Assembly (NCBI GenBank): GCA_035529515.1
Contig: DATKWN010000033.1
Coordinates: 1-36,805, forward strand
Origin: Candidatus Krumholzibacteriaceae bacterium
Lineage (GTDB): Archaea > Thermoproteota > Bathyarchaeia > TCS64
Reading direction: 5' to 3'
DNA length: 36,805 nt
Below the pieces are notes generated by a model. That model made no database searches. It saw nothing but the letters and a program-made list of their open reading frames with translations, and was not told where the DNA came from. Positions 8,048-36,805 of the stretch are shown here, in pieces. The position numbers were made by a program, and so were the translations under genes. The first letter of the stretch is position 1. Every line of letters starts with the position of its first letter.

Positions 8048-8587
8048 TTATCTTCTTATCTCCAGGTTTACAGCGTTGACCATCACCACGGTGTTGAGCT
8101 TGACGTTGACGGCTTCGTCGAATGAGGCGGAGAGGTAGCTCTCGAGGAAGACGCTCCACTTGTAGCCCATCTTGTGGGTCAGGTGGAAGCTGTCCAAGCC
8201 CTCCACCGTGTTGCGGTCGCATCGGAACCAGCCGTCGTACTCGCCCAGGATCTGGGTGATGTACCAGACCACGTTCTCGTAGTTCACCCTCATCCCCCTC
8301 TGCATTAGGCTGCTCTTGACGTGTCTCCTGCCGGAGGCTTCCCCGATCTCCTGTATCTGCTCGTTGTCCAGTCTGGAGATGAACTCGTTGAACGTGTCAG
8401 AGGAAAAGGTCACCATGCCGGCGCTGTCCTGGAACCGTATGGAGGCGAGGTACCTGTTGAAGATGTTCCCTATGAGGGCGTTGACGCTGAAACCCCGGCG
8501 CTCGGCCTCCCTTATCAGCGCCTGCTCCTGCTCCTCGTCGAGCCGGATTGTTCTGGTGGCCGTCTTCCTGTGTTCCCTGCTTGTCAA
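8048..8587 (-). CDS. Ribbon-helix-helix (CopG-like) domain protein with an uncharacterised C-terminal domain; putative regulator
   Basis: The N-terminal TRTIRLDEEQEQALIREAERRGFSVNALIGNIF fits a beta-strand/helix/helix RHH pattern. TTG start. It is divergently transcribed from the first glycine-zipper paralog. Confidence 0.55.
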   Translation of the reverse strand: MTSREHRKTATRTIRLDEEQEQALIREAERRGFSVNALIGNIFNRYLASIRFQDSAGMVTFSSDTFNEFISRLDNEQIQEIGEASGRRHVKSSLMQRGMRVNYENVVWYITQILGEYDGWFRCDRNTVEGLDSFHLTHKMGYKWSVFLESYLSASFDEAVNVKLNTVVMVNAVNLEIRR

Positions 8588-8728: not shown

Positions 8729-9178
8729 ATGCCCTACGTGAAAAGGTACAAAGACCTGAGCACCGACCTGAACGCCGTCTACGACGACATCAAGTACGAG
8801 CTCCAGACAGGAAAGGGGCTCAACGTGGTGAAGGAGCAGGACGGAACCGTGAACGGCGTCCCGTTCAAGAGCATCTTCGCGGTTCGAGAAAGCGTCCCCA
8901 AGGCCCTCACCGGCACCCTGAGGGAGGTAACGGTGACCATCACCGGCGTGGCGGACGACTGGCTCCTCGAGGTCCACACGGGTGCGTGGTTCAGCAACAT
9001 GATCACGCCGGGAACCGGCGGCCTAATCATCGCCGGCCCCCTCGGCGGGATAGCCGCCTCGGGGACAGGCGCCGTCTACGCCGTGAAGTTCGAGCGGGAC
9101 CTCAAGAACCGGATCAAGGAGATCGTCAAGAAGCACAGCAAGAAGCCCTACACCGAAGACAAGGTGGAGACGTTCTAG
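8729..9178 (+). CDS. Uncharacterised small protein, paralog 1 of 6 (subfamily A), with a Gly/Ala-rich glycine-zipper-like hydrophobic segment
   Basis: 149 aa. It shares MP(F/Y)V(K/R)RYKDL...TGTLREVTVTITG..DDWLLE.HTGAWF.N...PG.GG.IIAGP.G...KNRIKE.VKKHS.K.Y.E.KVETF with ORFs 9191, 14910 and 15372. Conservation across paralogs supports real coding. Confidence 0.85.
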   Translation: MPYVKRYKDLSTDLNAVYDDIKYELQTGKGLNVVKEQDGTVNGVPFKSIFAVRESVPKALTGTLREVTVTITGVADDWLLEVHTGAWFSNMITPGTGGLIIAGPLGGIAASGTGAVYAVKFERDLKNRIKEIVKKHSKKPYTEDKVETF

Positions 9179-9190
9179 GAGTGAATATGT

Positions 9191-9646
9191 GTGCCATTCG
9201 TTAGAAGATACAAGGACCTGTCTACCAACCTGGATGGCCTCTACACGGACATAGTCATGGAGCTGCAGCAGGAGAAGGACCTGGAGATAGTTAAGGAGAC
9301 AAATGGAGTCATCAACGACGTGGGGTTCCGCAGCGTGACGGCGATACGCGCCACGGTTCCACGCGCCGTGACCGGCACCCTCAGGGAGGTCAGCGTCACC
9401 GTCGCAGGGGAGCCGGATGACTGGCTGCTTGAGCTCCACACCGGGGCCTGGTTCGGCAACATGGTTCTGCCCGGAGCGGGCGGGTTCCTCATAGCCGGCC
9501 CAGTTGGCACAGCCGCAGCCGCCGGAACCACGACGCTGCTCGCCGTCACGTACGGCCGCAGGCTCAAGAACAGGATCAAGGAGCTTGTGAAGAAGCACAG
9601 CGGCAAGAAGTACACCGAGGAAAAAGTCGAGACATTCATTTCGTAG
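9191..9646 (+). CDS. Uncharacterised small protein, paralog 2 of 6 (subfamily A)
   Basis: 151 aa with a GTG start preceded by GGAGTGA. It aligns over its full length with paralogs 1, 5 and 6. Confidence 0.85.
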   Translation: MPFVRRYKDLSTNLDGLYTDIVMELQQEKDLEIVKETNGVINDVGFRSVTAIRATVPRAVTGTLREVSVTVAGEPDDWLLELHTGAWFGNMVLPGAGGFLIAGPVGTAAAAGTTTLLAVTYGRRLKNRIKELVKKHSGKKYTEEKVETFIS

Positions 9647-9657
9647 GCGGTGGAAGA

Positions 9658-9951
9658 ATGCCCGAGAAGACAAGGAAAGAACTGGAGAAGCTCGAGGAGA
9701 GAGCCGAGAAGCTCGTCAATAAGGCCAAGGAGACGCCCAAGAAGGCGGTGAAGGGCCTCAGGGGGGAGTTCAAAGGGCTAGCCCAGGACGGTAAGAAGCT
9801 AGCCAAGAGGATCGACGACTCAGCCGACAAGGCTGAGGAGAAGACCATGAAAACCTTCAAGGCCCTAGGCGACAGGCTGCAGAAGCTTCTCAAGAAGCTC
9901 AACGACTGGTCCGAGCTGGCTGATGAGCCAGACACTAACCTACTGGAGTAG
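9658..9951 (+). CDS. Lys-rich helical protein with an acidic Trp-containing tail, paralog K1
   Basis: 97 aa: MPEKTRKELEKLEERAEKLVNKAKETPKKAVK...WSELADEPDTNLLE. It is collinear with ORF 14595-14891 (MPQKIKQELDEWEEKTKNVIKKVKKVPKKVSK...WQEATEEDLIEPME). An RBS-like GGTGGAAG lies upstream. Confidence 0.75.
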   Translation: MPEKTRKELEKLEERAEKLVNKAKETPKKAVKGLRGEFKGLAQDGKKLAKRIDDSADKAEEKTMKTFKALGDRLQKLLKKLNDWSELADEPDTNLLE

Positions 9952-9993: not shown

Positions 9994-11238
9994 TTGACAG
10001 GCGTCATCGTCTGCCTAGGATACATAGGCAACTTTCTGTTCAACAGGAAGGGGATCCCAGACAACCTAATACTGATCCTCTTCGGCATAGCCCTTGGCCC
10101 GGCTCTGCATCTCATCGATCCAACGGGGTTCATAAATATAGCGCCCATCTTCAGCGGGTTAGCGCTGCTCATCATATTATTCGACGGAGGCATGAACCTG
10201 AACCTCTACAAGGTGCTTGAGGAGAGCCCCAAAGCCATGGTGCTCGGCGTCGTGAACGTGCTGCTAAGCATGGCGTTAACAGCGGCGTTCACCAGCGTGG
10301 TGCTGGGCTGGGAGCTTCTCCACGGACTCCTCCTGGGCACCATCGTTGGAGGCACCAGCAGCAGCATCGTGCTGTCCCTCACAAAGAAGATGGATGTCCC
10401 TGAGCGCATAAACACGCTTATGAGCCTCGAGTCGGTGTTCACGGACGCCATCGTGATAGTGCTAGGCATCACCTTACTCGACCTCATCGTTAGCGCCAAG
10501 TCCATGGTGTTCAGCGAGGTGGCGAAGAACATCGCCAGCGCCTTCAGCATAGGCGTCGTCTTCGGTCTAATCTGCGGATTGGTGTGGCTCAAACTGCTGA
10601 GCGTCATCAGAGACCAGACCTACGACGACATACTGACGCTCTCGGTGACTCTTCTCTTCTACGGCCTGACGGAGGTGGTGGGAGGCAACGGCGCCATCTT
10701 CGCCCTCATATTTGGCCTCGTACTGGGAAACGGAGTCGAGATCGGCGGAATCTTCAGGATGGAAGGCATCGTAGAGATTGGCGGCATAATGAGGAAGTTT
10801 ATGAACCAGATGAGCTTCTTCATACGCACCTACTTCTTCGTCTACTTGGGCCTCATACTGTTCATAGAGAACAGTATGACCGTCCTCTACAGCGTCGCCC
10901 TGTCTCTGCTGCTGCTGGGGGGCAGGTTCATCGGCGTGATGTTCACCACCTTCAGGGACCCGGAGCTAGGCGAGTACAACAGCGTCCTAACGTCGATGAT
11001 GCCCCGAGGCCTGGCGGCGGCCATCATGGCGCAGCTAGTGGCTTCGTCTGGCATCGCCTACTCCTCGATGTTCCCGGAGCTCATAATGATAGTGATCATA
11101 GTCTCCGTGGTGATCTCAAGCGTAGGAGCTGCGTTATTGAAGAGGAGAATGAGTAGAGATAGTGTAGACGCTGGCCCCGCAACTGCTTCAACTGGGGTCA
11201 ACGTCGACAGACAGTTTTTAAATGGTAGAAAAAGTTGA
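9994..11238 (+). CDS. nhaP: CPA1 (NhaP-type) monovalent cation:proton antiporter
   Basis: 414 aa and polytopic. LFGIALGP, LILFDGGMNL and LESVFTDAIVIVLG blocks are typical of NhaP-type exchangers. No C-terminal regulatory domain. The annotated TTG start leaves a short first TM helix (see findings). Confidence 0.8.
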   Translation: MTGVIVCLGYIGNFLFNRKGIPDNLILILFGIALGPALHLIDPTGFINIAPIFSGLALLIILFDGGMNLNLYKVLEESPKAMVLGVVNVLLSMALTAAFTSVVLGWELLHGLLLGTIVGGTSSSIVLSLTKKMDVPERINTLMSLESVFTDAIVIVLGITLLDLIVSAKSMVFSEVAKNIASAFSIGVVFGLICGLVWLKLLSVIRDQTYDDILTLSVTLLFYGLTEVVGGNGAIFALIFGLVLGNGVEIGGIFRMEGIVEIGGIMRKFMNQMSFFIRTYFFVYLGLILFIENSMTVLYSVALSLLLLGGRFIGVMFTTFRDPELGEYNSVLTSMMPRGLAAAIMAQLVASSGIAYSSMFPELIMIVIIVSVVISSVGAALLKRRMSRDSVDAGPATASTGVNVDRQFLNGRKS

Positions 11239-11684
11239 CAAAGACACAGTTATTCAAGAACAAGGCCGTAAACCTCGAGACCCTTTACAAAAAGATAAAG
11301 AGAAGGCTCCTCGAGGACGACTTTAGGCTTACAAGCGAGGCCCAGACCGAGCACGTATACCATATGAGGGCCGAGAAGACAGGCGTCACAGAGATCATAA
11401 TAGGCGCGGTCAGGGACATAGAGCTCATAATAGCCGGGGAGCCAAACTCGTTCGCGGTCATCTTCACCGTCGGCGCTTGGGGCAAGAACATAGTCTCCTC
11501 CGGATCCACAGGCTACATCGTCACGTCCCTCATCGCCGGCCCCGCGGCCATCTACGGCGGCCTAGCCGCCACAACCAGCTACATCAGGGCCGTAGCCTAT
11601 GAGGGCGACTTCTGGAAACAGATCGAGAAATACATCGACCTCCAGTCCAAGGAGAGCAAGAAAAAGGAGGCAGCCAAGGACTAA
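11235..11684 (+). CDS. Uncharacterised small protein, paralog 3 of 6 (subfamily B)
   Basis: 149 aa. Its TTG start overlaps the nhaP stop (GTTGA). It shares KAV.L..LY..IK..L.(E)D.F......GA.RD(I/V)E(L/I)(I/V).AG(E/D)P(N/D).FAV(I/V)..VGAWGKN...SG.TG(Y/F)IV with ORF 12894, and the overall architecture with subfamily A. Confidence 0.8.
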   Translation: MTKTQLFKNKAVNLETLYKKIKRRLLEDDFRLTSEAQTEHVYHMRAEKTGVTEIIIGAVRDIELIIAGEPNSFAVIFTVGAWGKNIVSSGSTGYIVTSLIAGPAAIYGGLAATTSYIRAVAYEGDFWKQIEKYIDLQSKESKKKEAAKD

Positions 11685-12907
11685 TGGAGCAACAACTGCT
11701 CTTCCGCGCAGTCGTGGACATCTGTCTGCTTATAGCCCTCGCCGAGGTAGCGTCGGCTGTCAACGCCAAGCTGAGGATTCCGCGCATCATCGGCACCCTC
11801 TCCATCGGAATTCTCTTCGGCCCCAAGCTGCTGGGAGGTCTCCAGCTCGCCGGCAGATCCCTCATCGAGTTCAACGAACTGGTGTACGTTTTCGCCGAGG
11901 TCGGCGCCGTCCTCCTGTTATTCAGCGCAGGGCTCCACATGACCTTCGGCGAACTGAAGAGGTCAGGCGCCATCTCGTTCACGGTGGCGCTAGCCGGTGT
12001 CATCGTGCCCTACGTCATGGGCTTCGCGGCTACCGTGCTTCTCGGCTACGACTGGTACATCGCGATGATCATAGGCGGCTCCATGGCGGCCACAAGCATA
12101 GCGATCTCGGTGAAGAGCCTGGACGAAATGGGCCGGATGAGCTCTACCGAGGCCAAGATAATACTTGGCGCCGCCATAATCGACGACGTGCTGGCGCTGT
12201 CATTGGCGAGCGTAATATTCACCATCGTCGTCAGCCACGCACAGATATCGACGCTGGACATCATCCTTTCGCTGAGCAAGACCCTAGGTGTATGGCTCGT
12301 GCTCACCGCCGTCAGCGCCCGCGTGGTTCCCATGCTGCTGGACTACGTGATTAGGCTCAAGGTAGGCGTCGGGCACCTCATAGAGGCTTTCTCCATTCTT
12401 GTGTGTTTCAGCTACGCGGCGTTCAGCGGCACACTTGGGCTGAGCCCCCTCGTCGGGGCGTTCATAGCTGGCATGGCCATCGCCGACAGCCTGTACTTGG
12501 ATCTGATCAAGGACTTCTTGGAGAAGGTGGAGGTGATCTTCGTGCCCCTGTTCTTCGTGGTGATGGGCGCCAGCGTGGACCCGCAATCGATCCTGCATGG
12601 CAACTTCCTGCTGATCCTCATCCTTTGCCTCGTGGGTGTGGTCAGTAAACTGATCGGCTGTGGGCTGCCTGCTGCCTATCTGCTCAAGGATCGTACTTGC
12701 GGTATACGGATAGGGTACGGCATGATCTCCCGGGGCGAGATAGGCTTGGTCATCGCAAGCATGGGTGTGACCTACGGGATCCTGCCGGGGGAGGTGTACA
12801 CGGCGCTCATCCTCATGATATTCGTGACTAGCCTCCTGCCGCCTTTCCTGCTGAAGCGGTCGTACTCGATGGAGGCTAAGACGCTGGAGGTGGTTGCACG
12901 TGACTAG
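11684..12907 (+). CDS. CPA2 (Kef/NapA-type) monovalent cation:proton antiporter
   Basis: 407 aa and polytopic. It has LLLFSAGLHM and the CPA2 DD motif in GAAIIDDVLALSL. Its ATG overlaps the stop of paralog 3 (TAATG). No KTN/RCK domain. Confidence 0.8.
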   Translation: MEQQLLFRAVVDICLLIALAEVASAVNAKLRIPRIIGTLSIGILFGPKLLGGLQLAGRSLIEFNELVYVFAEVGAVLLLFSAGLHMTFGELKRSGAISFTVALAGVIVPYVMGFAATVLLGYDWYIAMIIGGSMAATSIAISVKSLDEMGRMSSTEAKIILGAAIIDDVLALSLASVIFTIVVSHAQISTLDIILSLSKTLGVWLVLTAVSARVVPMLLDYVIRLKVGVGHLIEAFSILVCFSYAAFSGTLGLSPLVGAFIAGMAIADSLYLDLIKDFLEKVEVIFVPLFFVVMGASVDPQSILHGNFLLILILCLVGVVSKLIGCGLPAAYLLKDRTCGIRIGYGMISRGEIGLVIASMGVTYGILPGEVYTALILMIFVTSLLPPFLLKRSYSMEAKTLEVVARD

Positions 12908-13334
12908 GCTGATGAAAGTAGAGGGAAAAGCTGTCGATCTGAGCAGGCTGTACGCGAATATAAAGAAGATGCTGGAGGACGAGAAGTTCAGGATCGTCAA
13001 AGACGACGTCACCGAGAACGCCTACCATATACGAGCCCTCAAGACGCAAATCACACGGATCATCGTCGGGGCTACCAGGGACGTAGAGATCGTCGTCGCC
13101 GGGGATCCGGACAATTTCGCCGTGGTGCTCATCGTCGGGGCCTGGGGCAAGAATCTGGCCATCTCGGGGGCGACGGGGTTCATAGTCGCCAGCACGATTG
13201 CGGCGCCTGCGGTCGTCGTCGGCACCGTGGCGGCAGCGGGCAGCTACCTGACAGCGATAAAGTTCGAGGAGCAGCTCTACAAACGGATAGAAGACGAGAT
13301 CAGGAAACAGAAGAAGCAGAGCACGCGTGCATGA
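12894..13334 (+). CDS. Uncharacterised small protein, paralog 4 of 6 (subfamily B)
   Basis: 146 aa from GTG 12894, which overlaps the CPA2 gene. ATG 12912 (MKVEGKAVDLSRLY), 4 nt after the CPA2 stop, is the more likely start by comparison with paralog 3. Confidence 0.8.
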   Translation: MHVTRLMKVEGKAVDLSRLYANIKKMLEDEKFRIVKDDVTENAYHIRALKTQITRIIVGATRDVEIVVAGDPDNFAVVLIVGAWGKNLAISGATGFIVASTIAAPAVVVGTVAAAGSYLTAIKFEEQLYKRIEDEIRKQKKQSTRA

Positions 13335-13396: not shown

Positions 13397-14458
13397 CTAT
13401 AGCCACTTTCTTCTCTTGAAGAAGAGGATCATCACCGCGGTTACTGTGATCATTATGAGCCACAGGGCGGGGTAGGCGTTTCTCCACTCCAGCTCGGGCA
13501 TGTACCTGAAGTTCATGCCGTAGATGCCGGCTAGGAAGGTGAGGGGTATGAATATGGTGCCTATTATGGTGAGCACCTGCATTATCTGGTTCATCTTGTT
13601 GCTGATGCTGCTCAGGTAGATGTCCAGCATCCCGCTGAGGAGGTCGCGGTAGGTCTCGATGGCGTCTATCACCTGTATGGTGTGGTCGTAGACGTCGCGG
13701 ATGTAGGGCCTGGTGTTTTCCCGGAACTGTCTGCTGCCTAGCTTGTCCAGGCGGCTGATGACCTCGCGGAGGGGCCAGACGCTCTTGCGGACGGCTATCA
13801 TCTTGCGCTTCATGTTGTAGATGTCGTGGAGGGTCTCGATGCGGGGGTCTACGACCAGCTCGTCCTCGATCTCCTCGACGCGGTCGCCGATCTTCTCCAG
13901 CACGGTGAAGTAGCCGTCCACCACCATGTCTATGAGGGTGTAGGCGAGGTAGTCGGCCCCCATCTTCCTGATGATCCCCTTGTTGTCCCTGATCCTCTGC
14001 CTCACGGCGTCGAAGCAGTCGCCGGGCGCCTCCTGGAAGGACACTATGTAGTGGTCGCCGAGGATTAGGCTGATCTGCTCTATCTCTATCTCCTCGGTCT
14101 CCTGGTTGTAGGTGATCATCTTGAGGACGAAGAAGACGTGGTCGTCGTACTCGTCGAGCTTGGGGCGTTGCAGTGTGTTGACGATGTCCTCCTGTATGAG
14201 GGGGTGGAACCCCATGTGTGTGCCTATCTCGACGATGTCCAGGGCCTTGAGGCCGTCGACATTTACCCACGTGATGTCTGGGCTGCGGAGGTCGTCGATT
14301 ATCTCGGAGGGCTCCTCTACGGTTCTCTCATCGTAGCTTGTCTCGTTGTAGGAGATCACGGTTATGTGTGCGGGGAGGGGCTCCTCTTCCCCGACGTAGA
14401 CGGGGGTTCCGGGGGGCAGCCCCGACTTCCTGGATCTCCTGAGGAGAATGCCTGCCAT
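13397..14458 (-). CDS. corA: CorA-family Mg2+/Co2+ transporter
   Basis: 353 aa with a cytoplasmic N-domain and two C-terminal TM helices carrying the YGMNF (GMN) signature. Confidence 0.9.
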   Translation of the reverse strand: MAGILLRRSRKSGLPPGTPVYVGEEEPLPAHITVISYNETSYDERTVEEPSEIIDDLRSPDITWVNVDGLKALDIVEIGTHMGFHPLIQEDIVNTLQRPKLDEYDDHVFFVLKMITYNQETEEIEIEQISLILGDHYIVSFQEAPGDCFDAVRQRIRDNKGIIRKMGADYLAYTLIDMVVDGYFTVLEKIGDRVEEIEDELVVDPRIETLHDIYNMKRKMIAVRKSVWPLREVISRLDKLGSRQFRENTRPYIRDVYDHTIQVIDAIETYRDLLSGMLDIYLSSISNKMNQIMQVLTIIGTIFIPLTFLAGIYGMNFRYMPELEWRNAYPALWLIMITVTAVMILFFKRRKWL

Positions 14459-14594: not shown

Positions 14595-14891
14595 TTATTC
14601 CATTGGTTCTATGAGGTCTTCCTCTGTCGCTTCTTGCCAGCCTTTACGCATGGCTTGGTAGGCTTTCTTGGTTCTCTCCCTGAGCTGCTTCAAAGTCTCC
14701 TTGGACTTGTCTTCCACCTGAACCATTCGCTTATCGATCTTCTTGACGAGGCTCTTCCCAGCTTTGGCGAGGCTCTTCGCCTCGTCTCGAACCTCTTTTG
14801 ACACCTTCTTGGGCACCTTTTTGACTTTCTTGATGACGTTCTTGGTCTTCTCTTCCCATTCATCCAACTCTTGTTTTATCTTCTGAGGCAT
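14595..14891 (-). CDS. Lys-rich helical protein with an acidic Trp-containing tail, paralog K2
   Basis: 98 aa, collinear with K1 (9658-9951). GGAGCAGTGA lies upstream of the ATG. Confidence 0.75.
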   Translation of the reverse strand: MPQKIKQELDEWEEKTKNVIKKVKKVPKKVSKEVRDEAKSLAKAGKSLVKKIDKRMVQVEDKSKETLKQLRERTKKAYQAMRKGWQEATEEDLIEPME

Positions 14892-14909
14892 TTTTCACTG
14901 CTCCAAGTT

Positions 14910-15365
14910 TTATGAGACGAAGGTCTCTATTTTATTTTCCGCATAGGTCTTTCCGCTGTGTTTCTTGACCATGCCCTTGATCTTGTTCTTCAGCTTCCTA
15001 CCATAGTCTGCTGCAAACACAGCCGAGGCCCCTGCGCCCGCTGCGGCGCCGAAGGGACCTGCAATCAAGAAGCCCCCGGTTCCAGGTAGTAGCATGTTTC
15101 CAAACCATGCTCCGGTGTGGAGCTCAAGCAGCCAGTCGTCTGGTACGCCGGCGATCGTGACTGTTACTTCTCGGAGTGTTCCAGTGATGGCTCTAGGCAC
15201 GGTTGCACGCACAGCCGTGATGGACTTGAATGGAACGTTGTTGATGACTCCGTTGTTCTCCACTGCGATGGTGAGGTCTTTGTCCTGCTGCAGCTCCTTC
15301 TTTGTGTCTTCGTAGAGACCATCAAGGTTGGTACCGAGGTCCTTATACCTTCGTATGAACGGTAT
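14910..15365 (-). CDS. Uncharacterised small protein, paralog 5 of 6 (subfamily A); canonical start codon missing
   Basis: The ORF track starts at GTG 15263 (MENNGV...). Homology to paralogs 1, 2 and 6 continues upstream in the same frame as IPFIRRYKDLGTNLDGLYEDTKKELQQDKDLTIAV, back to an ATA codon at 15363-15365, where the paralogs have their initiator. An out-of-frame ATG sits at 15367-15369. Confidence 0.7.
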   Translation of the reverse strand: MPFIRRYKDLGTNLDGLYEDTKKELQQDKDLTIAVENNGVINNVPFKSITAVRATVPRAITGTLREVTVTIAGVPDDWLLELHTGAWFGNMLLPGTGGFLIAGPFGAAAGAGASAVFAADYGRKLKNKIKGMVKKHSGKTYAENKIETFVS

Positions 15366-15371
15366 CCATTC

Positions 15372-15827
15372 TCACCCTATGAAGGTCTCTACCTTCTCGT
15401 CGCTATATTTTTCCTTGCTGTGCTTCTTGACGAGATCCTTGATCTTAGCCTTAAGCTTCCTTCCATACTGGGCAGCCATGAGTCCCGCCGTACCTGCTAC
15501 AGCCAACCCTGCGAGTGGTCCAACTAGGATTGAGGCTCCCAGGTAAGGCATAGCGAGGTTGCTGAACCACTCACCCGTGTGCATCTCGATGAGGTAGTCG
15601 TTTTTCTCCCCAGTGATGGTCACCGTGACCTCCCTCAGGGTGCCTGTAACCATCTTGGGTATCGAGGCACGGTTCGCGGTTACACTCATGAAGGGAACCC
15701 CGTTTACGTCTCCTTTAAGCTCCTTGGCGACGTTGAGTTCTTTCTCGTTCTGAAGCTCCTTTACGATGTCCTTGTATAGAACGTCAAGGTCTGTGTTCAT
15801 GTCCTTGTATCTTCTAACAAAAGGCAT
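15372..15827 (-). CDS. Uncharacterised small protein, paralog 6 of 6 (subfamily A)
   Basis: 151 aa: MPFVRRYKDMNTDLDVLYKDIVKELQ...TGTLREVTVTITGEKNDYLIEMHTGEWFSN...KVETFIG. Full-length alignment with paralogs 1, 2 and 5. Confidence 0.85.
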   Translation of the reverse strand: MPFVRRYKDMNTDLDVLYKDIVKELQNEKELNVAKELKGDVNGVPFMSVTANRASIPKMVTGTLREVTVTITGEKNDYLIEMHTGEWFSNLAMPYLGASILVGPLAGLAVAGTAGLMAAQYGRKLKAKIKDLVKKHSKEKYSDEKVETFIG

Positions 15828-15935: not shown

Positions 15936-16355
15936 TTACTCTTTGAGCCGGTAGCTGTGGCCCTCGGCCTTCTCCACGATGCCCTCCTCGACGAGCTCCA
16001 GCACCTTTTTACGCACCGTCACGCGGCTCCCCGTGCCTCGCTCCCGTTGCACTTCCCTGGTTAATGCGCTGATGTTCTGCGGCCCCTTTAACGCCAGCAC
16101 GTTGAGGATCACTCGGCTCACGTCGTCCCTGTGCTCCTCGTCTCGGGACAGGTGCCTGCGGACGCTCACCAGCCTCTGGATCAGCTTCAGCGGCTCGCTG
16201 TACAGTGCCGCCCCGACTCGGAGGTCCCCCATCACCTGAGCCAGCTCCGGGTACTGCCTGCTCTCCGTCAGCACCGCCTCCAGGTAGTCGAGGCGACGCA
16301 TCATGTACTCAAGCTTCTCGTTGACCTCCTTGAGGTCCCGCTCCAGGCCCGACAA
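15936..16355 (-). CDS. Putative transcription regulator: N-terminal coiled coil plus C-terminal winged helix-turn-helix
   Basis: 139 aa. The C-terminal ILNVLALKGPQNISALTREVQRERGTGSRVTVRKKVLELVEEGIVEKAEGHSYRL looks like an ArsR/MarR-type wHTH. It has the same orientation as paralog 6 and lies 108 nt upstream of it. Confidence 0.55.
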   Translation of the reverse strand: MSGLERDLKEVNEKLEYMMRRLDYLEAVLTESRQYPELAQVMGDLRVGAALYSEPLKLIQRLVSVRRHLSRDEEHRDDVSRVILNVLALKGPQNISALTREVQRERGTGSRVTVRKKVLELVEEGIVEKAEGHSYRLKE

Positions 16356-30590: not shown

Positions 30591-31271
30591 CTATCTTCCA
30601 GTGTACCACTCGATCTTATTGGTCTTGTAGCCGTATATTAGGATGACAACTATGATCACTAGGAACGCGTAAGTAATCATACTGACCCGTGGATCTAGCA
30701 TGGCGACTAGGCGACCTATGACCAGTTCCATCCTGAATGAGACGGTCTGCCCGTAGGTCACTCCGAAGGCACACAGCAGGAACACCCTGCCGCCTGTGTG
30801 TATGTACTTGTAGACTCCAGATTCTTGGGTCGTGAAGATGAAGTAGGCAGCGGTTAAGCATGTTCCGATCACCATCACTATGTTGTTAAACGAGTTCAAA
30901 GGGAGCACCGTCGCTTGGATCTGCCCCAAGAAGTCTGCCATCACCGTCGTCCTCATGGCGAGCCCTAGGCCCACTCCCACCGTCAACACGACGGGGTATC
31001 GTGAGATCCACATGTACTTAGCCTTTAGACGGCCCAGCAACATCAGAGAGAGGAGTATGGCGATTATGTAGACGAATTCTCCCTCAGCCACCTTGCTGAG
31101 GGCATTCTTACGTATGAAGTCCCAGTTCACCGCGAAAATGTAGCCACCGAGTATTCCCATGTAGATGTTCTCTGTGATTCTAGAGATCGGGTTATCGCCG
31201 ATCAGGACAGAATAGGCTCCGAGAGAGACAAGCGACCCAGCTATCAATCCTAATATCTCTGCGTCCATCAA
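30591..31271 (-). CDS. Uncharacterised polytopic membrane protein (B2)
   Basis: 226 aa with about 6-7 hydrophobic helices. The start is TTG 31271 or ATG 31268; the ATG overlaps the upstream stop (TGATG). No family recognised. Confidence 0.7.
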   Translation of the reverse strand: MMDAEILGLIAGSLVSLGAYSVLIGDNPISRITENIYMGILGGYIFAVNWDFIRKNALSKVAEGEFVYIIAILLSLMLLGRLKAKYMWISRYPVVLTVGVGLGLAMRTTVMADFLGQIQATVLPLNSFNNIVMVIGTCLTAAYFIFTTQESGVYKYIHTGGRVFLLCAFGVTYGQTVSFRMELVIGRLVAMLDPRVSMITYAFLVIIVVILIYGYKTNKIEWYTGR

Positions 31272-32107
31272 GCCTCACCTCTCATCCTCTGTATGAAGTA
31301 CAGTACGTTTCCAAGGATCACCAGTAACATCCAGAGCAGTCCTCCAAAGTTAGTCGCCATGGCCTGCCCCAGGGCTGGTCCAGGCAGGCTGAGGAGGAAC
31401 TCGTACTCCGCGGATCCCCTAACCCCGCCGAACAAGCCTTGCAGCTGACCTGCGCTGATGTAGGGACTGAAGTTGGGAACCTCATTTGTCGTACACATGC
31501 CAGTCATTGGAATGTCGAAAGGCACTGAGACCTGCCGTACACCATACCCTATGCTAGCTTCGGATCCGCCCCACCAAAGGACGGCAGAAAACGCAGTTGC
31601 GTCGTTGATACCCTCCAACAGGGGGATGTCATCGATGGGCGTGCCGAAATAGTCCGCTGAAACCGTGGCACGGATATCGTTGACAAGCGAGCCTACGCCA
31701 GCCTCCCCTCCTGCGATATATCCCAAGTGAACCCAGTTCACACCGTTTTCGGCGGGCGTACCAGCAGGAAGTTTATCTAAAGCCGTCTCGATGGCTGTCA
31801 TCGTCCAGACATTCTGCTCCGTACCGATGCTAAATAAAACGATCTTCACGCCTTTCGTTAGCATATGATAGATCTGAACCACCATCCCAGGTCCACCCTG
31901 GGGGTAGGTGGCGGCATTTAATCCGCCCTCGAAGAGGACGATAGATCCCTCTGGGATGCTATCGGAGAAATCGAAAGCCTTCTGAGAGTAGTCCTGAATC
32001 GCCATCGGAAGGATGACGGGGTTCAAGATGGGGAAGGCCAACGCGATGAACATTAAGACGAAGATGATCCTCGGGTCGAGGTTCAGTAACCTATCCATTA
32101 TACTCAT
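31268..32107 (-). CDS. Uncharacterised bitopic membrane protein with a large central soluble domain (A2)
   Basis: I place the start at ATG 32107 (MSIMDRLLNLDPRIIFVLMFIALAFPIL...). It is preceded by GGAGGAG and lies 1 nt after the stop of the upstream gene. The track start at 32179 would overlap that gene by 71 nt. The protein has N- and C-terminal TM helices around a ~220-aa domain and is distantly similar to A1. Confidence 0.7.
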   Translation of the reverse strand: MSIMDRLLNLDPRIIFVLMFIALAFPILNPVILPMAIQDYSQKAFDFSDSIPEGSIVLFEGGLNAATYPQGGPGMVVQIYHMLTKGVKIVLFSIGTEQNVWTMTAIETALDKLPAGTPAENGVNWVHLGYIAGGEAGVGSLVNDIRATVSADYFGTPIDDIPLLEGINDATAFSAVLWWGGSEASIGYGVRQVSVPFDIPMTGMCTTNEVPNFSPYISAGQLQGLFGGVRGSAEYEFLLSLPGPALGQAMATNFGGLLWMLLVILGNVLYFIQRMRGEA

Positions 32108-32108
32108 C

Positions 32109-32762
32109 TCATTCTCCTCCTGCCCTCTCCTCTCGGATGCCCAGGTGCTCCTTCTGCCTGCCTGTAAACACCCTGACACCTAGACCCATGATGCCCAGCG
32201 ATGTGCCCATGATCATCCCCCTAAAGCCCGCAGAGCTTGGGAAGGATCTAATCCACTCGCCGATTGGAACCACGGGCGGGAATATTATGGCGCCGATGGG
32301 TATCAGCATCATCAGCACGATGAACCCACAAACCAGTAGTACTGCTGCACTCCAGTTCCTAGCCCTGAAGACTCTGTAAGCCGCGGATGTGATGTAGAAA
32401 GCCGTAAGCGAGTAGAGGGCGGCTCCTATGGGTGCTGTCATGTTATTATAGATCCATAGGAAACTCTCGTTCCTGATTCCGATCAGACCTAAGCCGATGG
32501 TGATCAGTAGCGAGACTATGAAGAATATGCTGTAGTACCATTCGCTCTTCTTTTGCGAGATCGTTCTAACGTGGGCTATTGTGAGGAAGATAATCCCTAG
32601 CATCAACGCGGCGGCTGAGACGATTGTCACGAATGACCTTGTAGTGATATTGAAGTTGGTAACAACGTCCGGCATCGGGAAGAAGTGCTCCAAGACCATT
32701 AGAATACCCAAGAGGGCAGTCAGAAAGATCGGGAGCTGAATCTTATATACTCTGTCACTCAT
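32109..32762 (-). CDS. Uncharacterised polytopic membrane protein (B1)
   Basis: 217 aa with about 6 hydrophobic helices. It starts 9 nt after the A1 stop. No family recognised. Confidence 0.7.
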   Translation of the reverse strand: MSDRVYKIQLPIFLTALLGILMVLEHFFPMPDVVTNFNITTRSFVTIVSAAALMLGIIFLTIAHVRTISQKKSEWYYSIFFIVSLLITIGLGLIGIRNESFLWIYNNMTAPIGAALYSLTAFYITSAAYRVFRARNWSAAVLLVCGFIVLMMLIPIGAIIFPPVVPIGEWIRSFPSSAGFRGMIMGTSLGIMGLGVRVFTGRQKEHLGIREERAGGE

Positions 32763-33736: not shown

Positions 33737-34735
33737 CTACCCGGGAGCAGAAGCCTTCAGGTGGCACGCCACCATCCTACCGCCCTCCACATCCACAAGC
33801 TGAGGCTCCTCCCTTCCGCAGATTTCCTCGGCGTAGGGGCACCGGGGGTGGAACCTGCAACCTGATGGCGGCTCGATGGCCGTCGGAACCTCCCCCTTTA
33901 TTTGGGGCTTAGGGTTATCGGAGTAGAGCCGTGGCACCGATGAGATGAGGGCCGCAGAGTATGGATGTATAGGGGCTTTGATGATTTCCTCGGTTCGACC
34001 TATCTCCACGATCTTGCCAAGGTACATCACCGCTATCCTGTCACAGACGTACCTGGCCACAGCCAGGTCATGGGTGATGAACAGGAAAGATATGTTGAAT
34101 CTCTCCCTTAGATCCTTAAGCAGGTTCAGTATACCTATCCTCATCGAGACATCTATCATGGAAACGGGTTCATCGGCCACGATGAATTCAGGGTTAAGGA
34201 TCAAGGCTCTCGCCACGGCTACTCTCTGCCTCTGGCCGCCGCTCAGTTCGTGTGGATAGTTGTATAGGAAGGTCTCGACGGGGGTAAGCTCAACGATCTC
34301 CATCATCGCGGTGATCCTCTTCTCGGCCTCCGATGTAGGAATTCCATGGATGTTCATGGGCTCGGCAATGATGTCGTAGATAGTCTTCCGTGGGTCAAGG
34401 CTGCTGTAGGGGTCTTGGAATATTATCTGAGTCCTCCTCCGGAACTCCTTTAACTCGTTTCCGTCCAGGTTGTTGATGTCGGAGCCGTCGAAAAGGATCT
34501 CTCCGGAGGTCGGGTTCTCTAGGAGCAGGAGTAGCCTTCCTGTTGTGGTTTTGCCGCAGCCGCTTTCCCCCACCAAGCCGAAGCTCTCTCCTTTCTTGAT
34601 GCCGAAGCTGACTCCGTCCACTGCATGCACGTAGATCTCCTTCTCCCCCAGCAGGGAGGAGAGGATGCCCTTGTTTATGGCGAAGTACTTCCTGAGGTTC
34701 TGCGTCTCTATCAGGTATCCGTCGATCTTCGTCAC
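33737..34735 (-). CDS. oppF: Oligopeptide/dipeptide ABC transporter ATP-binding protein, OppF/DppF type
   Basis: 332 aa with Walker A GESGCGKTT, the signature LSGGQRQR, Walker B FIVADEP and a C-terminal oligopeptide domain ([26 protein letters not shown]...ACHL). GTG start. Confidence 0.9.
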   Translation of the reverse strand: MTKIDGYLIETQNLRKYFAINKGILSSLLGEKEIYVHAVDGVSFGIKKGESFGLVGESGCGKTTTGRLLLLLENPTSGEILFDGSDINNLDGNELKEFRRRTQIIFQDPYSSLDPRKTIYDIIAEPMNIHGIPTSEAEKRITAMMEIVELTPVETFLYNYPHELSGGQRQRVAVARALILNPEFIVADEPVSMIDVSMRIGILNLLKDLRERFNISFLFITHDLAVARYVCDRIAVMYLGKIVEIGRTEEIIKAPIHPYSAALISSVPRLYSDNPKPQIKGEVPTAIEPPSGCRFHPRCPYAEEICGREEPQLVDVEGGRMVACHLKASAPG

Positions 34736-34739
34736 TCTT

Positions 34740-35693
34740 CTACCCCCTGAGGTGGCATGCTACCCTGTGCCCCGACCCCAATGTGATCATTTCAGGCTCC
34801 TCCCGTCTACACCTATCGGTGGCGTGGGGGCACCGGGGGTGGAACCTGCACCCCGTCGGTGGGTTCATCAGGCTCGGCGGCGCACCGCCTATAGCCTTGA
34901 GGTGCTTCCCCTCCCCGTCGATCGTGGGGAACGCTTCCATGAGGCCTGTGGTGTACGGGTGGAGGGGCTCCTTGATGAGGGTCCCTGTGTCGGTGACCTC
35001 CATGAGCTTACCCGCGTAGAAGATGCCCACGCGGTCGCATAGCTCCATTATGACGGAGAGGTCGTGGGTGATGAGGATCAGTGAGAGATTCAGCTCCTCC
35101 CTGAGCCTGTTGATGAGGTCGATGATCTGTCTCTGGATGATTACGTCTAGGGCAGTGGTGGGCTCGTCGGCTATGACAAGGTCAGGGCTGAGGGCGAGCG
35201 CCATGGCTATCATGGCCCTCTGCTTCATCCCTCCGCTGAACTCGTGGGGATAGTTGTCCACCCTTGACTCGTCGATCCCGACGAGCCTAAGCATTTCTCT
35301 GGCCCTGCTCAGCGCTTCCTCCTTGGAGGCCTTGTCGTGGTGGATAATGGCCTCGCATATCTGGTCCCCAACCTTGTAGACGGGGTTGAGGGCGTTCATC
35401 GCTCCCTGGAAGATCATGGATATCCTCTTCCACCTGATGGCGTCGATCTCCTCAATCGACTTCTCTAGGAGGTCCTCACCCTGGAACATTATCCTGCCGC
35501 CCTCTATTCGACCGGGGGGCTTGATAAGCCGCATAACCGATAGAGCCATGGTGGTCTTCCCGGACCCCGATTCGCCTGCCAGCCCGAAGGCCTCGCCTTT
35601 CCTTACCTGTAAAGTCACGCCGTCTACTGCCTTTACCACGCCGTCCATGGTATGGAAGTAGGTTCTGAGGTCTTCTATCTCAAGCAACTTCAA
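34740..35693 (-). CDS. oppD: Oligopeptide/dipeptide ABC transporter ATP-binding protein, OppD/DppD type
   Basis: 317 aa with Walker A GESGSGKTT, FSGGMKQR, LVIADEPTTALD and a C-terminal [28 protein letters not shown]...ACHL. Confidence 0.9.
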   Translation of the reverse strand: MKLLEIEDLRTYFHTMDGVVKAVDGVTLQVRKGEAFGLAGESGSGKTTMALSVMRLIKPPGRIEGGRIMFQGEDLLEKSIEEIDAIRWKRISMIFQGAMNALNPVYKVGDQICEAIIHHDKASKEEALSRAREMLRLVGIDESRVDNYPHEFSGGMKQRAMIAMALALSPDLVIADEPTTALDVIIQRQIIDLINRLREELNLSLILITHDLSVIMELCDRVGIFYAGKLMEVTDTGTLIKEPLHPYTTGLMEAFPTIDGEGKHLKAIGGAPPSLMNPPTGCRFHPRCPHATDRCRREEPEMITLGSGHRVACHLRG

Positions 35694-35697
35694 CTCT

Positions 35698-36030
35698 TCA
35701 CCGCCTCCTCAGCCTCGGGTTGAATATGTCGCTCAAGGTGTAACCCACGAAGGTGAAGCCCAGTCCCACCATAGTGATGCATAGCCCCGGCGGCACGATC
35801 CACCACCACGCCCTCCTGAGGAAGGCACCGTACGCCTGAGCGTAGTAGAGGAGCATACCCCAGCTAACGTGGGTAGGGTCTCCCAGCCCGAGGAAACTCA
35901 GCCCCGCTTCCCCTAGGATGGCGCCGACTACGCTTAGCACTGCTTGGGGCAGGATGAGGCCCACGACATTGGGCAGTATGTGGTCGTATATGATCCTGAA
36001 TGAGCCCGCACCAGCGGCCTTGCTACATCT
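35698..36030 (-). pseudogene. oppC: Truncated OppC/DppC-type ABC permease (C-terminal ~110 codons only)
   Basis: Only ...AAGAGSFRIIYDHILPNVVGLILPQAVLSVVGAILGEAGLSFLGLGDPTHVSWGMLLYYA...WWWIVPPGLCITMVGLGFTFVGYTLSDIFNPRL resembles OppC, and this corresponds to just the last third of the family. The 5' part of the track ORF (36031-36261) translates to Ser/Arg/Pro-rich sequence with no permease-like TM helices. Confidence 0.6.
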
Positions 36031-36264
36031 CCGTCCGGAGCAATCTGGACCAGCCTGTCGTAAACGCTGGGCTCTATTCGTATGGGCACGAGGCACCACT
36101 TCAGCTCCTTCTCCATAAGGCTCCTTACTCCCTCCTTTAGATGAGGAACTGATGGAGGACTTAGAGTTTGGCCGAAGCGAAAGACAGGCACGTTTCGACC
36201 ATGGCGAGGGCCCTGCTCTACATAATAGAGAAGCTACAAGGAAAGGCCTGACGCTCGTCAAGAT

Positions 36265-36805
36265 TCATCTAGTTAAATGACAGGCTACCTTGTGACCCGA
36301 GCTAACCTCTATTGAAAGGGGTTCCTCTCTTTCACATAACTCCTCCGTATATGGGCATCTCGGGTGAAACCTGCAACCCGAAGGAGGGTTCAGTGGACTC
36401 GGAACGTCTCCTTTAAGTATAATCTTCACATGCTTAAGATCTGGATCCGGTATCGGGATGGCTGAGAACAGTGCCCTCGTGTAGGGATGCAGGGGGTTTT
36501 CAAAGAGCTCGACCTTTGTTCCTGTCTCAACGATTTTTCCAACATACATCACAGCGATTCGGTCGCTCATGTATTCGATAACTGAAAGGTTGTGGGATAT
36601 GAACATGTATGTGAGATCCAGCTCCTTCTGCAGTTTTAGTAGGAGGTTCAGAATCTTTGCTTGGACGGATACGTCTAAAGCCGAAGTCGGCTCGTCGAGA
36701 ACTATGAATTTAGGGTTTAAAATAAGAGACCTAGCTATTCCAATTCTCTGCCTCTGCCCACCGCTGAACTCATGAGGGTATCGATAAAGATGTTCCTTCT
36801 TTAGA
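36265..36805 (-). CDS. Second OppF/DppF-type ABC ATP-binding protein; 5' end outside the window
   Basis: The frame stays open past the track start at 36606 to the window edge: ...[69 protein letters not shown]...[26 protein letters not shown]...ACHL. Confidence 0.85.

Follow-up and report, generated by a model that had tools for sequence, protein, structure and literature searches.

In Escherichia coli, KefF-KefC and KefG-KefB are K+ efflux systems of the cation:proton antiporter family CPA2 in which a small ancillary protein encoded beside the CPA2 gene modulates the transporter. Both ancillary proteins, KefF and KefG, are soluble oxidoreductases of the flavodoxin-like type, and their binding site is the KTN/RCK domain at the C-terminus of KefC and KefB. 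In KhtS/KhtT-KhtU (YhaSTU) of Bacillus subtilis and in AmhM-AmhT the CPA2 protein is bare and its regulators are separate small genes in the operon, KhtT and AmhM being RCK/KTN proteins themselves. NapA- and NhaP-type antiporters are textbook self-sufficient homodimeric exchangers, and the known regulators of CPA2 proteins are RCK/KTN domains or KefF-type proteins. Here we analyze a string of genes from Candidatus Krumholzibacteriaceae bacterium, which GTDB places in the Bathyarchaeia (TCS64), an abundant and uncultured sediment lineage. The string lies in assembly GCA_035529515.1, contig DATKWN010000033.1, positions 1-36,805, and this whole stretch of 36,805 nucleotides (nt) is referred to as the window. 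The open reading frame (ORF) listing and direct reading of the sequence gave the co-directional order GZ-A1, GZ-A2, KE-rich coiled-coil protein, NhaP-like antiporter, GZ-B3, CPA2 antiporter and GZ-B4 on the plus strand (Table 1). GZ stands for glycine zipper, and the two small type B paralogs are called B3 and B4 from here on.

The locus resembles the described systems in part. As with KefF and KefC, the gene for a small protein directly adjoins the CPA2 gene, and the CPA2 protein of the window is a KefC homologue (1e-18). Unlike KefC it has no KTN/RCK domain, and unlike KefF and KefG, B3 and B4 have no flavodoxin match in Pfam or NCBIfam and are predicted to consist of a beta-alpha-beta4 sheet and a long helix with a hydrophobic hairpin. 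The locus also differs from KefF/KefC in that two paralogs bracket the transporter gene. It shares with the KhtU and AmhT systems a bare CPA2 protein and separate small genes in one operon, but no TrkA_N-type domain such as KhtT and AmhM would have is detectable in B3 and B4; between KhtS and B3 or B4 no sequence relation was seen, a direct comparison not having been made. Like NapA of Thermus thermophilus and PaNhaP of Pyrococcus abyssi, the antiporters of the window are of similar length and have no cytoplasmic regulatory domain, and CPA2 shares the DD motif.

We tentatively propose that B3 and B4 are an accessory pair for CPA2, and perhaps also for further cation transporters without cytoplasmic domains, a reading that we regard as a good possibility, somewhat short of probable. 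If it is true, the arrangement would be of a known kind but built from a previously unannotated protein family. B3 and B4 are then two candidates for a new kind of CPA2 accessory subunit, and cation homeostasis is the first functional handle on a family that has no Pfam, NCBIfam or structural annotation.

Gene order around CPA2 in related loci

Related loci, which are metagenomic and come from hypersaline or estuarine sediments, were mapped by tblastn and their junctions were read. The pairing of antiporter and GZ-B genes that was predicted from the window is found in other genomes, and orthologous antiporters do have GZ-B neighbours there: a B gene directly adjoins a CPA gene in 25 of the 43 loci and in about 11 of the 15 sequence lineages, numbers that overstate independence in that the loci share ancestry and their synteny is inherited. 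The full string of A genes, coiled-coil gene, NhaP, B3, CPA2 and B4 is present in L001, L003, L005-L008 and L014 at 63-95% B3 identity, with the contig ending inside CPA2 and B4 beyond view in L006, L007 and L014. In L002, L012, L013, L021/L057 and L056 the order is B3-CPA2-B4, and NhaP is either absent or reduced to an N-terminal remnant of 35-40 amino acids (aa). These remnants lie between the coiled-coil gene and B3 (L002, 5787-5891; L012, 385-489; L056, 2859-2981) and therefore show that NhaP was recently lost while B3-CPA2-B4 was kept. In L009, L016 and L022, B3 is followed by CPA2 and the contig ends before any B4, and in L030 and L034 the order is CPA2-B4-NhaP. Thus, the conserved unit is B3-CPA2-B4, and NhaP, which is dispensable, was added in front of B3 later. 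This conserved linkage, which resists rearrangement, supports a functional tie of GZ-B to CPA proteins.

The phylogeny of the B genes agrees with their positions. In a neighbour-joining tree the B3 clade is separate from the B4 clade; genes of the B3 clade are always upstream of CPA2 or of B4, and those of the B4 clade are always downstream of CPA2 or of B3. Judged from these sequences, B3 and B4 are evidently two old paralog clades. The outgroup is a single-copy B gene (P0035, 43% identity), which is upstream of a gene for an MscS channel and divergent to a CPA2-type gene that is 47% identical to the CPA2 of the window.

In four loci (L004, L017, L023 and L025) B3 and B4 are directly adjacent, at a spacing of 0 or -4 nt, and no antiporter is present on up to 12 kb. 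That the two B genes remain coupled where there is no CPA2 suggests that they work as a pair. In the three such loci that have an upstream flank, the B3-B4 genes are divergent from a gene for a 397-aa protein made up of two MgtE membrane domains only. This MgtE-like protein (L004, 4634-5827; also L017, L023 and L026) has neither an MgtE_N nor a CBS domain and is encoded divergently beside B3-B4, and MgtE-like genes were also seen within about 2-3 kb of B4 or CPA2 in L008, L032, L036 and L058.

In L010, L011, L018 and L019, NhaP is followed by a B3/B4 hybrid gene and then by CorA. The hybrids are in frame (L010, 1930-2361; L011, 3870-4301; L018, 6001-6429; L019, 1998-2423) and switch from 100% B3-like to 100% B4-like inside a stretch that both genes share, TGGGGCAAGAA, which codes for GAWGKN. 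The CorA flank of L010 and L011 is 99% identical to that of the window. The hybrids are the product of a clean recombinational deletion of CPA2 between B3 and B4, and this is a population polymorphism among close strains. The original prediction was that each antiporter has a GZ-B paralog of its own. If so, NhaP would be partnered with B3 and CPA2 with B4, each partner being encoded immediately downstream and made 1:1 through translational coupling. Such strict pairing would fit the alternation and overlap of the genes in the window, the adjacency of NhaP and B3, which is kept in 12 loci, and the deletion strains, where NhaP is still followed by one intact hybrid, that is, one B gene per antiporter. 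However, B3 keeps its place in front of CPA2 in loci with no NhaP or only a degenerate one (L002, L009, L012, L013, L016, L021/L057, L022 and L056), NhaP comes after B4 in L030 and L034, and the overlap of B3 with CPA2 is better conserved than that of NhaP with B3. The hybrid was rejected as proof of one B gene per antiporter because the count after the deletion follows mechanically from recombination of B3 and B4 at the GAWGKN-coding stretch. Hence, what stands is the recurrent linkage of GZ-B and CPA genes, while the assignment of one paralog to each antiporter, which we consider decidedly unlikely, gives way to a picture in which both B3 and B4 track CPA2 and NhaP is variable. The strains with CPA2 deleted and a hybrid B gene, those that have lost NhaP, and those with B3-B4 alone beside MgtE are natural variants that can be compared.

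Junctions and start codons

It had been predicted that the string alternates antiporter, GZ-B, antiporter and GZ-B without spacers, and this is borne out by three overlaps of -4, -1 and -8 nt. At the first junction, TTGA at 11235-11238, the TTG start codon of B3 (11235-11237) overlaps the TGA stop codon of NhaP (11236-11238); the overlap is real, and only the position given earlier has to be corrected because the five letters GTTGA span 11234-11238. TTG is the sole canonical start available to B3: the frame opens after a TAG at 11226-11228 and has no further start codon until Met43. Relatives of B3 have TTG or ATG at the same position of the M-T-K N-terminus. Spacing from NhaP to B3 in the relatives is -4 in L007, L010, L011, L018 and L019, +1 in L003, L008 and L014, and +13 in L001. 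The second junction, TAATG at 11682-11686, is exactly as had been claimed, the B3 stop codon TAA (11682-11684) overlapping the CPA2 start codon ATG (11684-11686). A Shine-Dalgarno-like motif, GGAGG, lies at 11666-11670 in the 3' end of B3, 13 nt before this ATG, and is kept in the relatives. The -1 overlap itself is kept in 11 loci, with B3 identity as low as 63%, and in the most distant loci the gap from B3 to CPA2 is +85 (L022) and +98 (L021).

At the third junction (GTGACTAG) B4 has three candidate start codons, TTG at 12894, GTG at 12900 and ATG at 12912. The prediction that B4 starts either inside the end of CPA2 or at ATG 12912 covers these options, but the codon at 12894 that it named is TTG and not GTG, the GTG being at 12900. 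GTG 12900 is the most likely start, as far as sequence can tell, because it restores the M-T-[KR] N-terminus that is conserved in nearly all members of the family, because L005 has ATG, and L008, L031 and L032 have TTG, at the equivalent codon, and because GGAGGTG (12886-12892) is 7 nt upstream. This Shine-Dalgarno-like motif is kept in L001, L008 and L032. With this start B4 begins 8 nt inside CPA2, whose stop codon is TAG at 12905-12907. In no lineage does the spacing from CPA2 to B4 leave the range of -8 to +11 nt, the other lineages having -4, -1, +2, +3 or +11.

Co-directional gene pairs spaced -8 to +10 nt are translationally coupled by termination-reinitiation (Huber et al. 2023, PMC10666635). 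The three spacings of the window fall within this range, as do most of those in the relatives. Among pairs in this range heteromeric complexes make up 45% in Haloferax volcanii and 30% in E. coli, as compared with about 6% among pairs that are more than 20 nt apart, which is an enrichment of 4.5- to 8-fold (PMC10666635). The packing was originally taken as the mark of stoichiometric partners. It is in the range for coupling, but since a complex is to be predicted for only about 30-45% of such pairs, tight spacing is an enrichment for complexes and not proof of one. The packing of the string is more than chance but not rare, and it is typical of, though not unique to, operons for interacting proteins. 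Could it be no more than the usual packing of operons in a compact archaeal genome, devoid of functional information? In prokaryotes, co-directional genes are most often spaced -4 or -1 nt apart, and 55-70% of tightly packed pairs encode no complex (PMC10666635). There are also further tight junctions in the window, those at or below +4 nt being confined to the genes for subunits of an Opp/Dpp-type ABC transporter (33737-36606) and one unannotated pair. Against this, the adjacency of GZ-B and CPA genes outlasts rearrangements and about 50% sequence divergence and recurs in a divergent arrangement in the outgroup lineage, and by our estimate chance adjacency in most lineages would be very improbable with CPA genes being few per genome. 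Compaction by itself is therefore a very unlikely explanation.

The GZ-B proteins and the two antiporters

B3 and B4 are genuine genes under purifying selection because they have homologues of 50-95% identity in the 43 loci, because the ratio of nonsynonymous to synonymous substitution rates is 0.11-0.12 for B3 and 0.19-0.20 for B4 (0.09-0.14 for the antiporters), and because the core of the B3 model is confident. Both have the features of the GZ-B family, namely, the M-T-K N-terminus, YHLRAEKTG, VGAWGKN, a small-residue segment centred on a proline and a length of about 140-150 aa, and both align end to end with 34 homologues. The family was found in this analysis only in Bathyarchaeia, and the four genome loci with GZ-B relatives are metagenome-assembled genomes of that group. 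A word-indexed search gave 34 clusters with no named protein, the one source-named cluster being a hypothetical protein of Candidatus Bathyarchaeota archaeon, and an exhaustive profile search of 1.84 billion representatives gave just 194 relatives at E <= 1e-3 and 56 at E <= 1e-10. Nothing above threshold was obtained for B3 and B4 in Pfam, NCBIfam or PADLOC, and a profile search of the Protein Data Bank (PDB) sequences gave no match better than E = 0.2. The window has six such small paralogs, four of type A with 57-62% mutual identity and two of type B with 47%, A and B being 23-29% identical to each other. Faint Pfam matches below the cut-offs, in the five of these paralogs that were scanned, were to YtxH, CopD and CesT_Tir_1 only. 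A search of the literature on glycine zippers, antiporters and archaea gave nothing relevant.

The AlphaFold (AF2) model of B3 has a mean predicted local distance difference test score (pLDDT) of 78.6 and a predicted template modelling score of 0.71. Residues 1-81 form a confident beta-alpha-beta4 sheet (pLDDT >90), and a long C-terminal helix spans residues 104-148, with pLDDT rising from about 60 at 111-120 to 93-95 at 121-140. Residues 85-115 are below 50, and 55% of this segment is Gly, Ala, Ser or Thr. A small residue recurs at every fourth position (S89, G93, T97, A101, A105, G109 and T113), and in the family alignment S89, G93 and P103, the central proline of the segment, are nearly invariant. 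The Kyte-Doolittle maximum over 19 residues is 1.47 in B3 and 2.07 in B4, borderline for a membrane segment, as against 2.69 for the helices of CPA2. A single membrane-spanning helix was considered and ruled out because the C-terminal helix packs confidently on the N-terminal sheet, which puts both ends of the segment on the same side. For the same reason the hydrophobic segment of GZ-B is, according to the model, presumably a re-entrant hairpin in the membrane. The Gly/Ala/Ser-rich hydrophobic segment with a small residue every fourth position is like that in Gly-zipper_Omp, Gly-zipper_YMGG, Gly-zipper_OmpA and Rick_17kDa_Anti. However, the Pfam glycine-zipper families are mostly bacterial outer-membrane lipoproteins, while the segment in GZ-B is an insert between a cytoplasmic sheet and a capping helix in an archaeal protein, and PF13488, PF13441, PF13436 and PF05433 did not match at E <= 0.1 in the five paralogs searched, that is, all but the ATA-start copy at 14910-15359. 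Foldseek against PDB gave weak helix-grip-like matches for the B3 model (TM-score 0.33-0.42, identity 8-13%), which were not used for assignment. The best of them, Flpp3 (6pny), the N-terminal domain of BamC, DUF4468, DcrB (6e8a) and EagT6 (6xrf), likewise have a beta-sheet packed on a long helix, but they do not have the Gly/Ala/Ser hydrophobic insert and bear no sequence relation to B3, and we take them as a lead only.

Based on the gene order and the model, we propose how an accessory pair might work. A GZ-B protein would have a cytoplasmic beta-alpha-beta4 domain capped by the long C-terminal helix, from which a hydrophobic segment of about 30 residues, rich in Gly, Ala, Ser and Thr and with a central proline, protrudes. 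Within the membrane this segment would form a re-entrant hairpin, with its small-xxx-small face set against other membrane helices. B3 and B4 would operate together as an accessory or regulatory subunit of cation transporters, of CPA2 above all, and would be synthesized in a fixed proportion by virtue of termination-reinitiation coupling. Physical contact of B3 and B4 with CPA2 is what we infer from gene context, and a regulatory role is suggested by gene context together with the monomer model. A more specific form of this proposal is that B3 and B4 are a heteromeric, hairpin-anchored cytoplasmic module that docks by its small-xxx-small helices on cation transporters without cytoplasmic domains, CPA2 here and an MgtE-like protein of twice five transmembrane helices in another lineage, and supplies in trans the sensing or gating domain that these transporters do without. 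We think that this specific form is unlikely, but if it were true, archaeal cation transporters would have a portable regulatory subunit of a new class, with no relation to RCK/KTN, CBS or KefF-type regulators.

Both antiporters are bare cores, as had been predicted: PF00999 covers residues 4-382 of 414 in NhaP and 25-390 of 407 in CPA2, and no other domain is present. For NhaP the PF00999 match is 1.2e-35 (123.5 bits), the nearest solved structure is PaNhaP (4cz8, 1.7e-13), and the NCBIfam K+/H+ antiporter models are below their cut-off (121.8 versus 355). All NhaP orthologues have ESVFTD (window about 10420-10440), with Thr-Asp where, going by PaNhaP and MjNhaP1, the Asn-Asp ion-binding motif of electroneutral CPA1 exchangers would be expected. 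To judge from this motif, ion specificity or stoichiometry may be unusual. For CPA2 the PF00999 match is 3e-54 (184.8 bits, cut-off 26.2); the CPA2 subfamily model of NCBIfam, TIGR00932, is the best-scoring family although its 148.4 bits are under the cut-off of 238.3. The nearest solved structures are NapA (4bwz/5bz3, about 1.5e-37) and KefC (1.3e-18). The motif GAA[IV][IL]DD, here GAAIIDD, is conserved in all CPA2 orthologues, and its DD is presumably the ion-binding site, as placed from NapA. No TrkA_N/RCK domain was found with Pfam and NCBIfam in NhaP, CPA2, B3, B4, three of the GZ-A proteins (8729-9178, 9191-9646 and 15372-15827) or the coiled-coil proteins.

Several observations weigh against the accessory pair. 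It was argued originally that a bare core makes a separately encoded partner plausible, but the argument carries little weight, since NapA and PaNhaP, homodimers of the same size, are not known to need accessory subunits. Moreover, of the seven CPA2 homologues that were checked, two (70 and 60% identity) are flanked by a B gene within 3 kb, but the other five (61, 58, 56, 55 and 55%) have no GZ gene within that distance. To the shared ancestry of the loci and the many tightly packed pairs that form no complex must be added the B3-B4 pairs that no antiporter adjoins, the deletion strains, which keep a hybrid B gene after loss of CPA2, and the single B4-like genes that lie near an Lrp-like regulator, an ATP-cone protein and DUF308 (L029, L038-L040 and L043, L043 without the regulator flank). 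More distant members of the GZ family show no transporter context; the A-like homologue of Nitrososphaeraceae, for example, adjoins Cdc48, Hsp20, CBS and PNPOx-like genes. Other members are fused to TIR-TPR, caspase-TPR or zinc ribbons, and no fusion of GZ to a transporter was found among the 10 long superfamily proteins scanned. Some distant relatives have polar sequence in place of the hydrophobic insert. Because of these polar-insert relatives and the fusions, the GZ domain gives the impression of a portable module rather than of a part reserved for transporters, and there are hints that it is a general membrane-targeting or effector module.

The fusions themselves were seen in P0068, P0103, P0151, P0048, P0066 and others, where the GZ domain is at the C-terminus of TIR-TPR or caspase-TPR proteins or is followed by a zinc ribbon. 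TIR-TPR and caspase-TPR architectures are typical of conflict or signalling systems. Another protein, P0034 (148 aa, on a contig of 978 nt), has the N-terminal domain of B3 (residues 1-68) joined to a PF04020 membrane domain and may be either a true swap of domains or a chimera of the assembly.

These contexts lead to another explanation, namely, that GZ-A, GZ-B and the KE-rich coiled-coil proteins are co-regulated membrane or ion-stress proteins that act independently of the antiporters and are not subunits. Their role would be to stabilise the membrane, to form small pores or, as amphitropic proteins, to insert or shield the hydrophobic hairpin that they carry, and they would share operons with cation transporters only for joint induction under salt, pH or osmotic stress. 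We regard this explanation as possible but on the whole doubtful. It would account for the variety of contexts in the superfamily, including B3-B4 beside MgtE and a single B gene beside MscS, for the fusions, which suggest a portable membrane or interaction module, and for the CPA2 homologues without GZ neighbours. The six paralogs and two coiled-coil proteins in the window, with weak similarity to YtxH, PspA and sll1863-like proteins, also fit, as does the weak fold likeness to DcrB- and EagT6-type proteins, which bind hydrophobic helices. However, the similarities to stress families are all below curated cut-offs, and the fixed positions of B3 and B4 around CPA2, with a 1-nt overlap kept over a wide divergence, are more than co-regulation needs. 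The accessory pair acting on CPA2 is the reading that we prefer. If B3 and B4 were merely co-regulated stress proteins, the annotation value would remain and the result would be ordinary.

Neighbouring genes in the window

Table 1. Genes of the antiporter string and of its immediate flanks in the window
Gene or product	Position	Strand	Evidence or remark
reg1, 179-aa protein	8048-8587	-	Divergent, upstream of the string; no significant Pfam match
GZ-A1	8729-9178	+	Paralog alignment
GZ-A2	9191-9646	+	Paralog alignment
KE-rich coiled-coil protein	9658-9951	+	Co-directional, upstream of NhaP
NhaP/CPA1-like cation:proton antiporter, 414 aa	9994-11238	+	PF00999
GZ-B3, 149 aa	11235-11684	+	No Pfam or NCBIfam match; B3 clade
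NapA-like CPA2 cation:proton antiporter, 407 aa	11684-12907	+	PF00999; DD motif
GZ-B4, 144 aa	12900-13334	+	47% identity to B3 in alignment; B4 clade
CorA Mg2+/Co2+ channel	13397-14458	-	PF01544, 9e-78; TIGR00383, 329 bits, over cut-off; convergent with B4

Upstream of the antiporters, GZ-A1, GZ-A2, the coiled-coil gene and NhaP are separated by gaps of 12, 11 and 42 nt, and this arrangement in front of NhaP is kept in the loci that have the full string. The divergent gene reg1 looks by eye like a ribbon-helix-helix regulator. It is kept divergently upstream of the GZ-A genes in L001, L002, L005, L007, L008, L018 and L056, and is upstream of B3 in L009. Convergent with the string are CorA, a second coiled-coil gene and two further GZ-A genes.

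The GZ-A and coiled-coil genes form two inverted triads of GZ-A, GZ-A and coiled-coil, at 8729-9951 on the plus strand and at 14595-15827 on the minus strand. Downstream of each triad, and in the same direction, there is a gene for a cation transporter, NhaP on the plus strand and CorA on the minus strand, and a putative regulator is near each of them (8048-8587 and 15936-16355). The region from 8 to 16.4 kb looks like a cation-homeostasis island. One of the two minus-strand copies, the third GZ-A gene (14910-15359), has ATA at its start (15357-15359), where the orthologues in L011, L018 and L019 have ATG (GGATACCG versus GGATGCCG), and there is no other canonical start in frame before residue 33. 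Either the rare ATA start is used in this strain or this copy is silenced.

No RNA families were found in the window with Rfam. A pair of co-directional ORFs of 226 and 303 aa at 30591-32179 on the minus strand overlaps by 4 nt and has no Pfam match. A gene for a PNPOx-like protein (PF01243; 16411-16833, minus strand) adjoins the block of GZ-A and regulator genes, and in the Nitrososphaeraceae loci (L044-L048) a PNPOx-like gene is also directly downstream of the GZ-A-like homologue.

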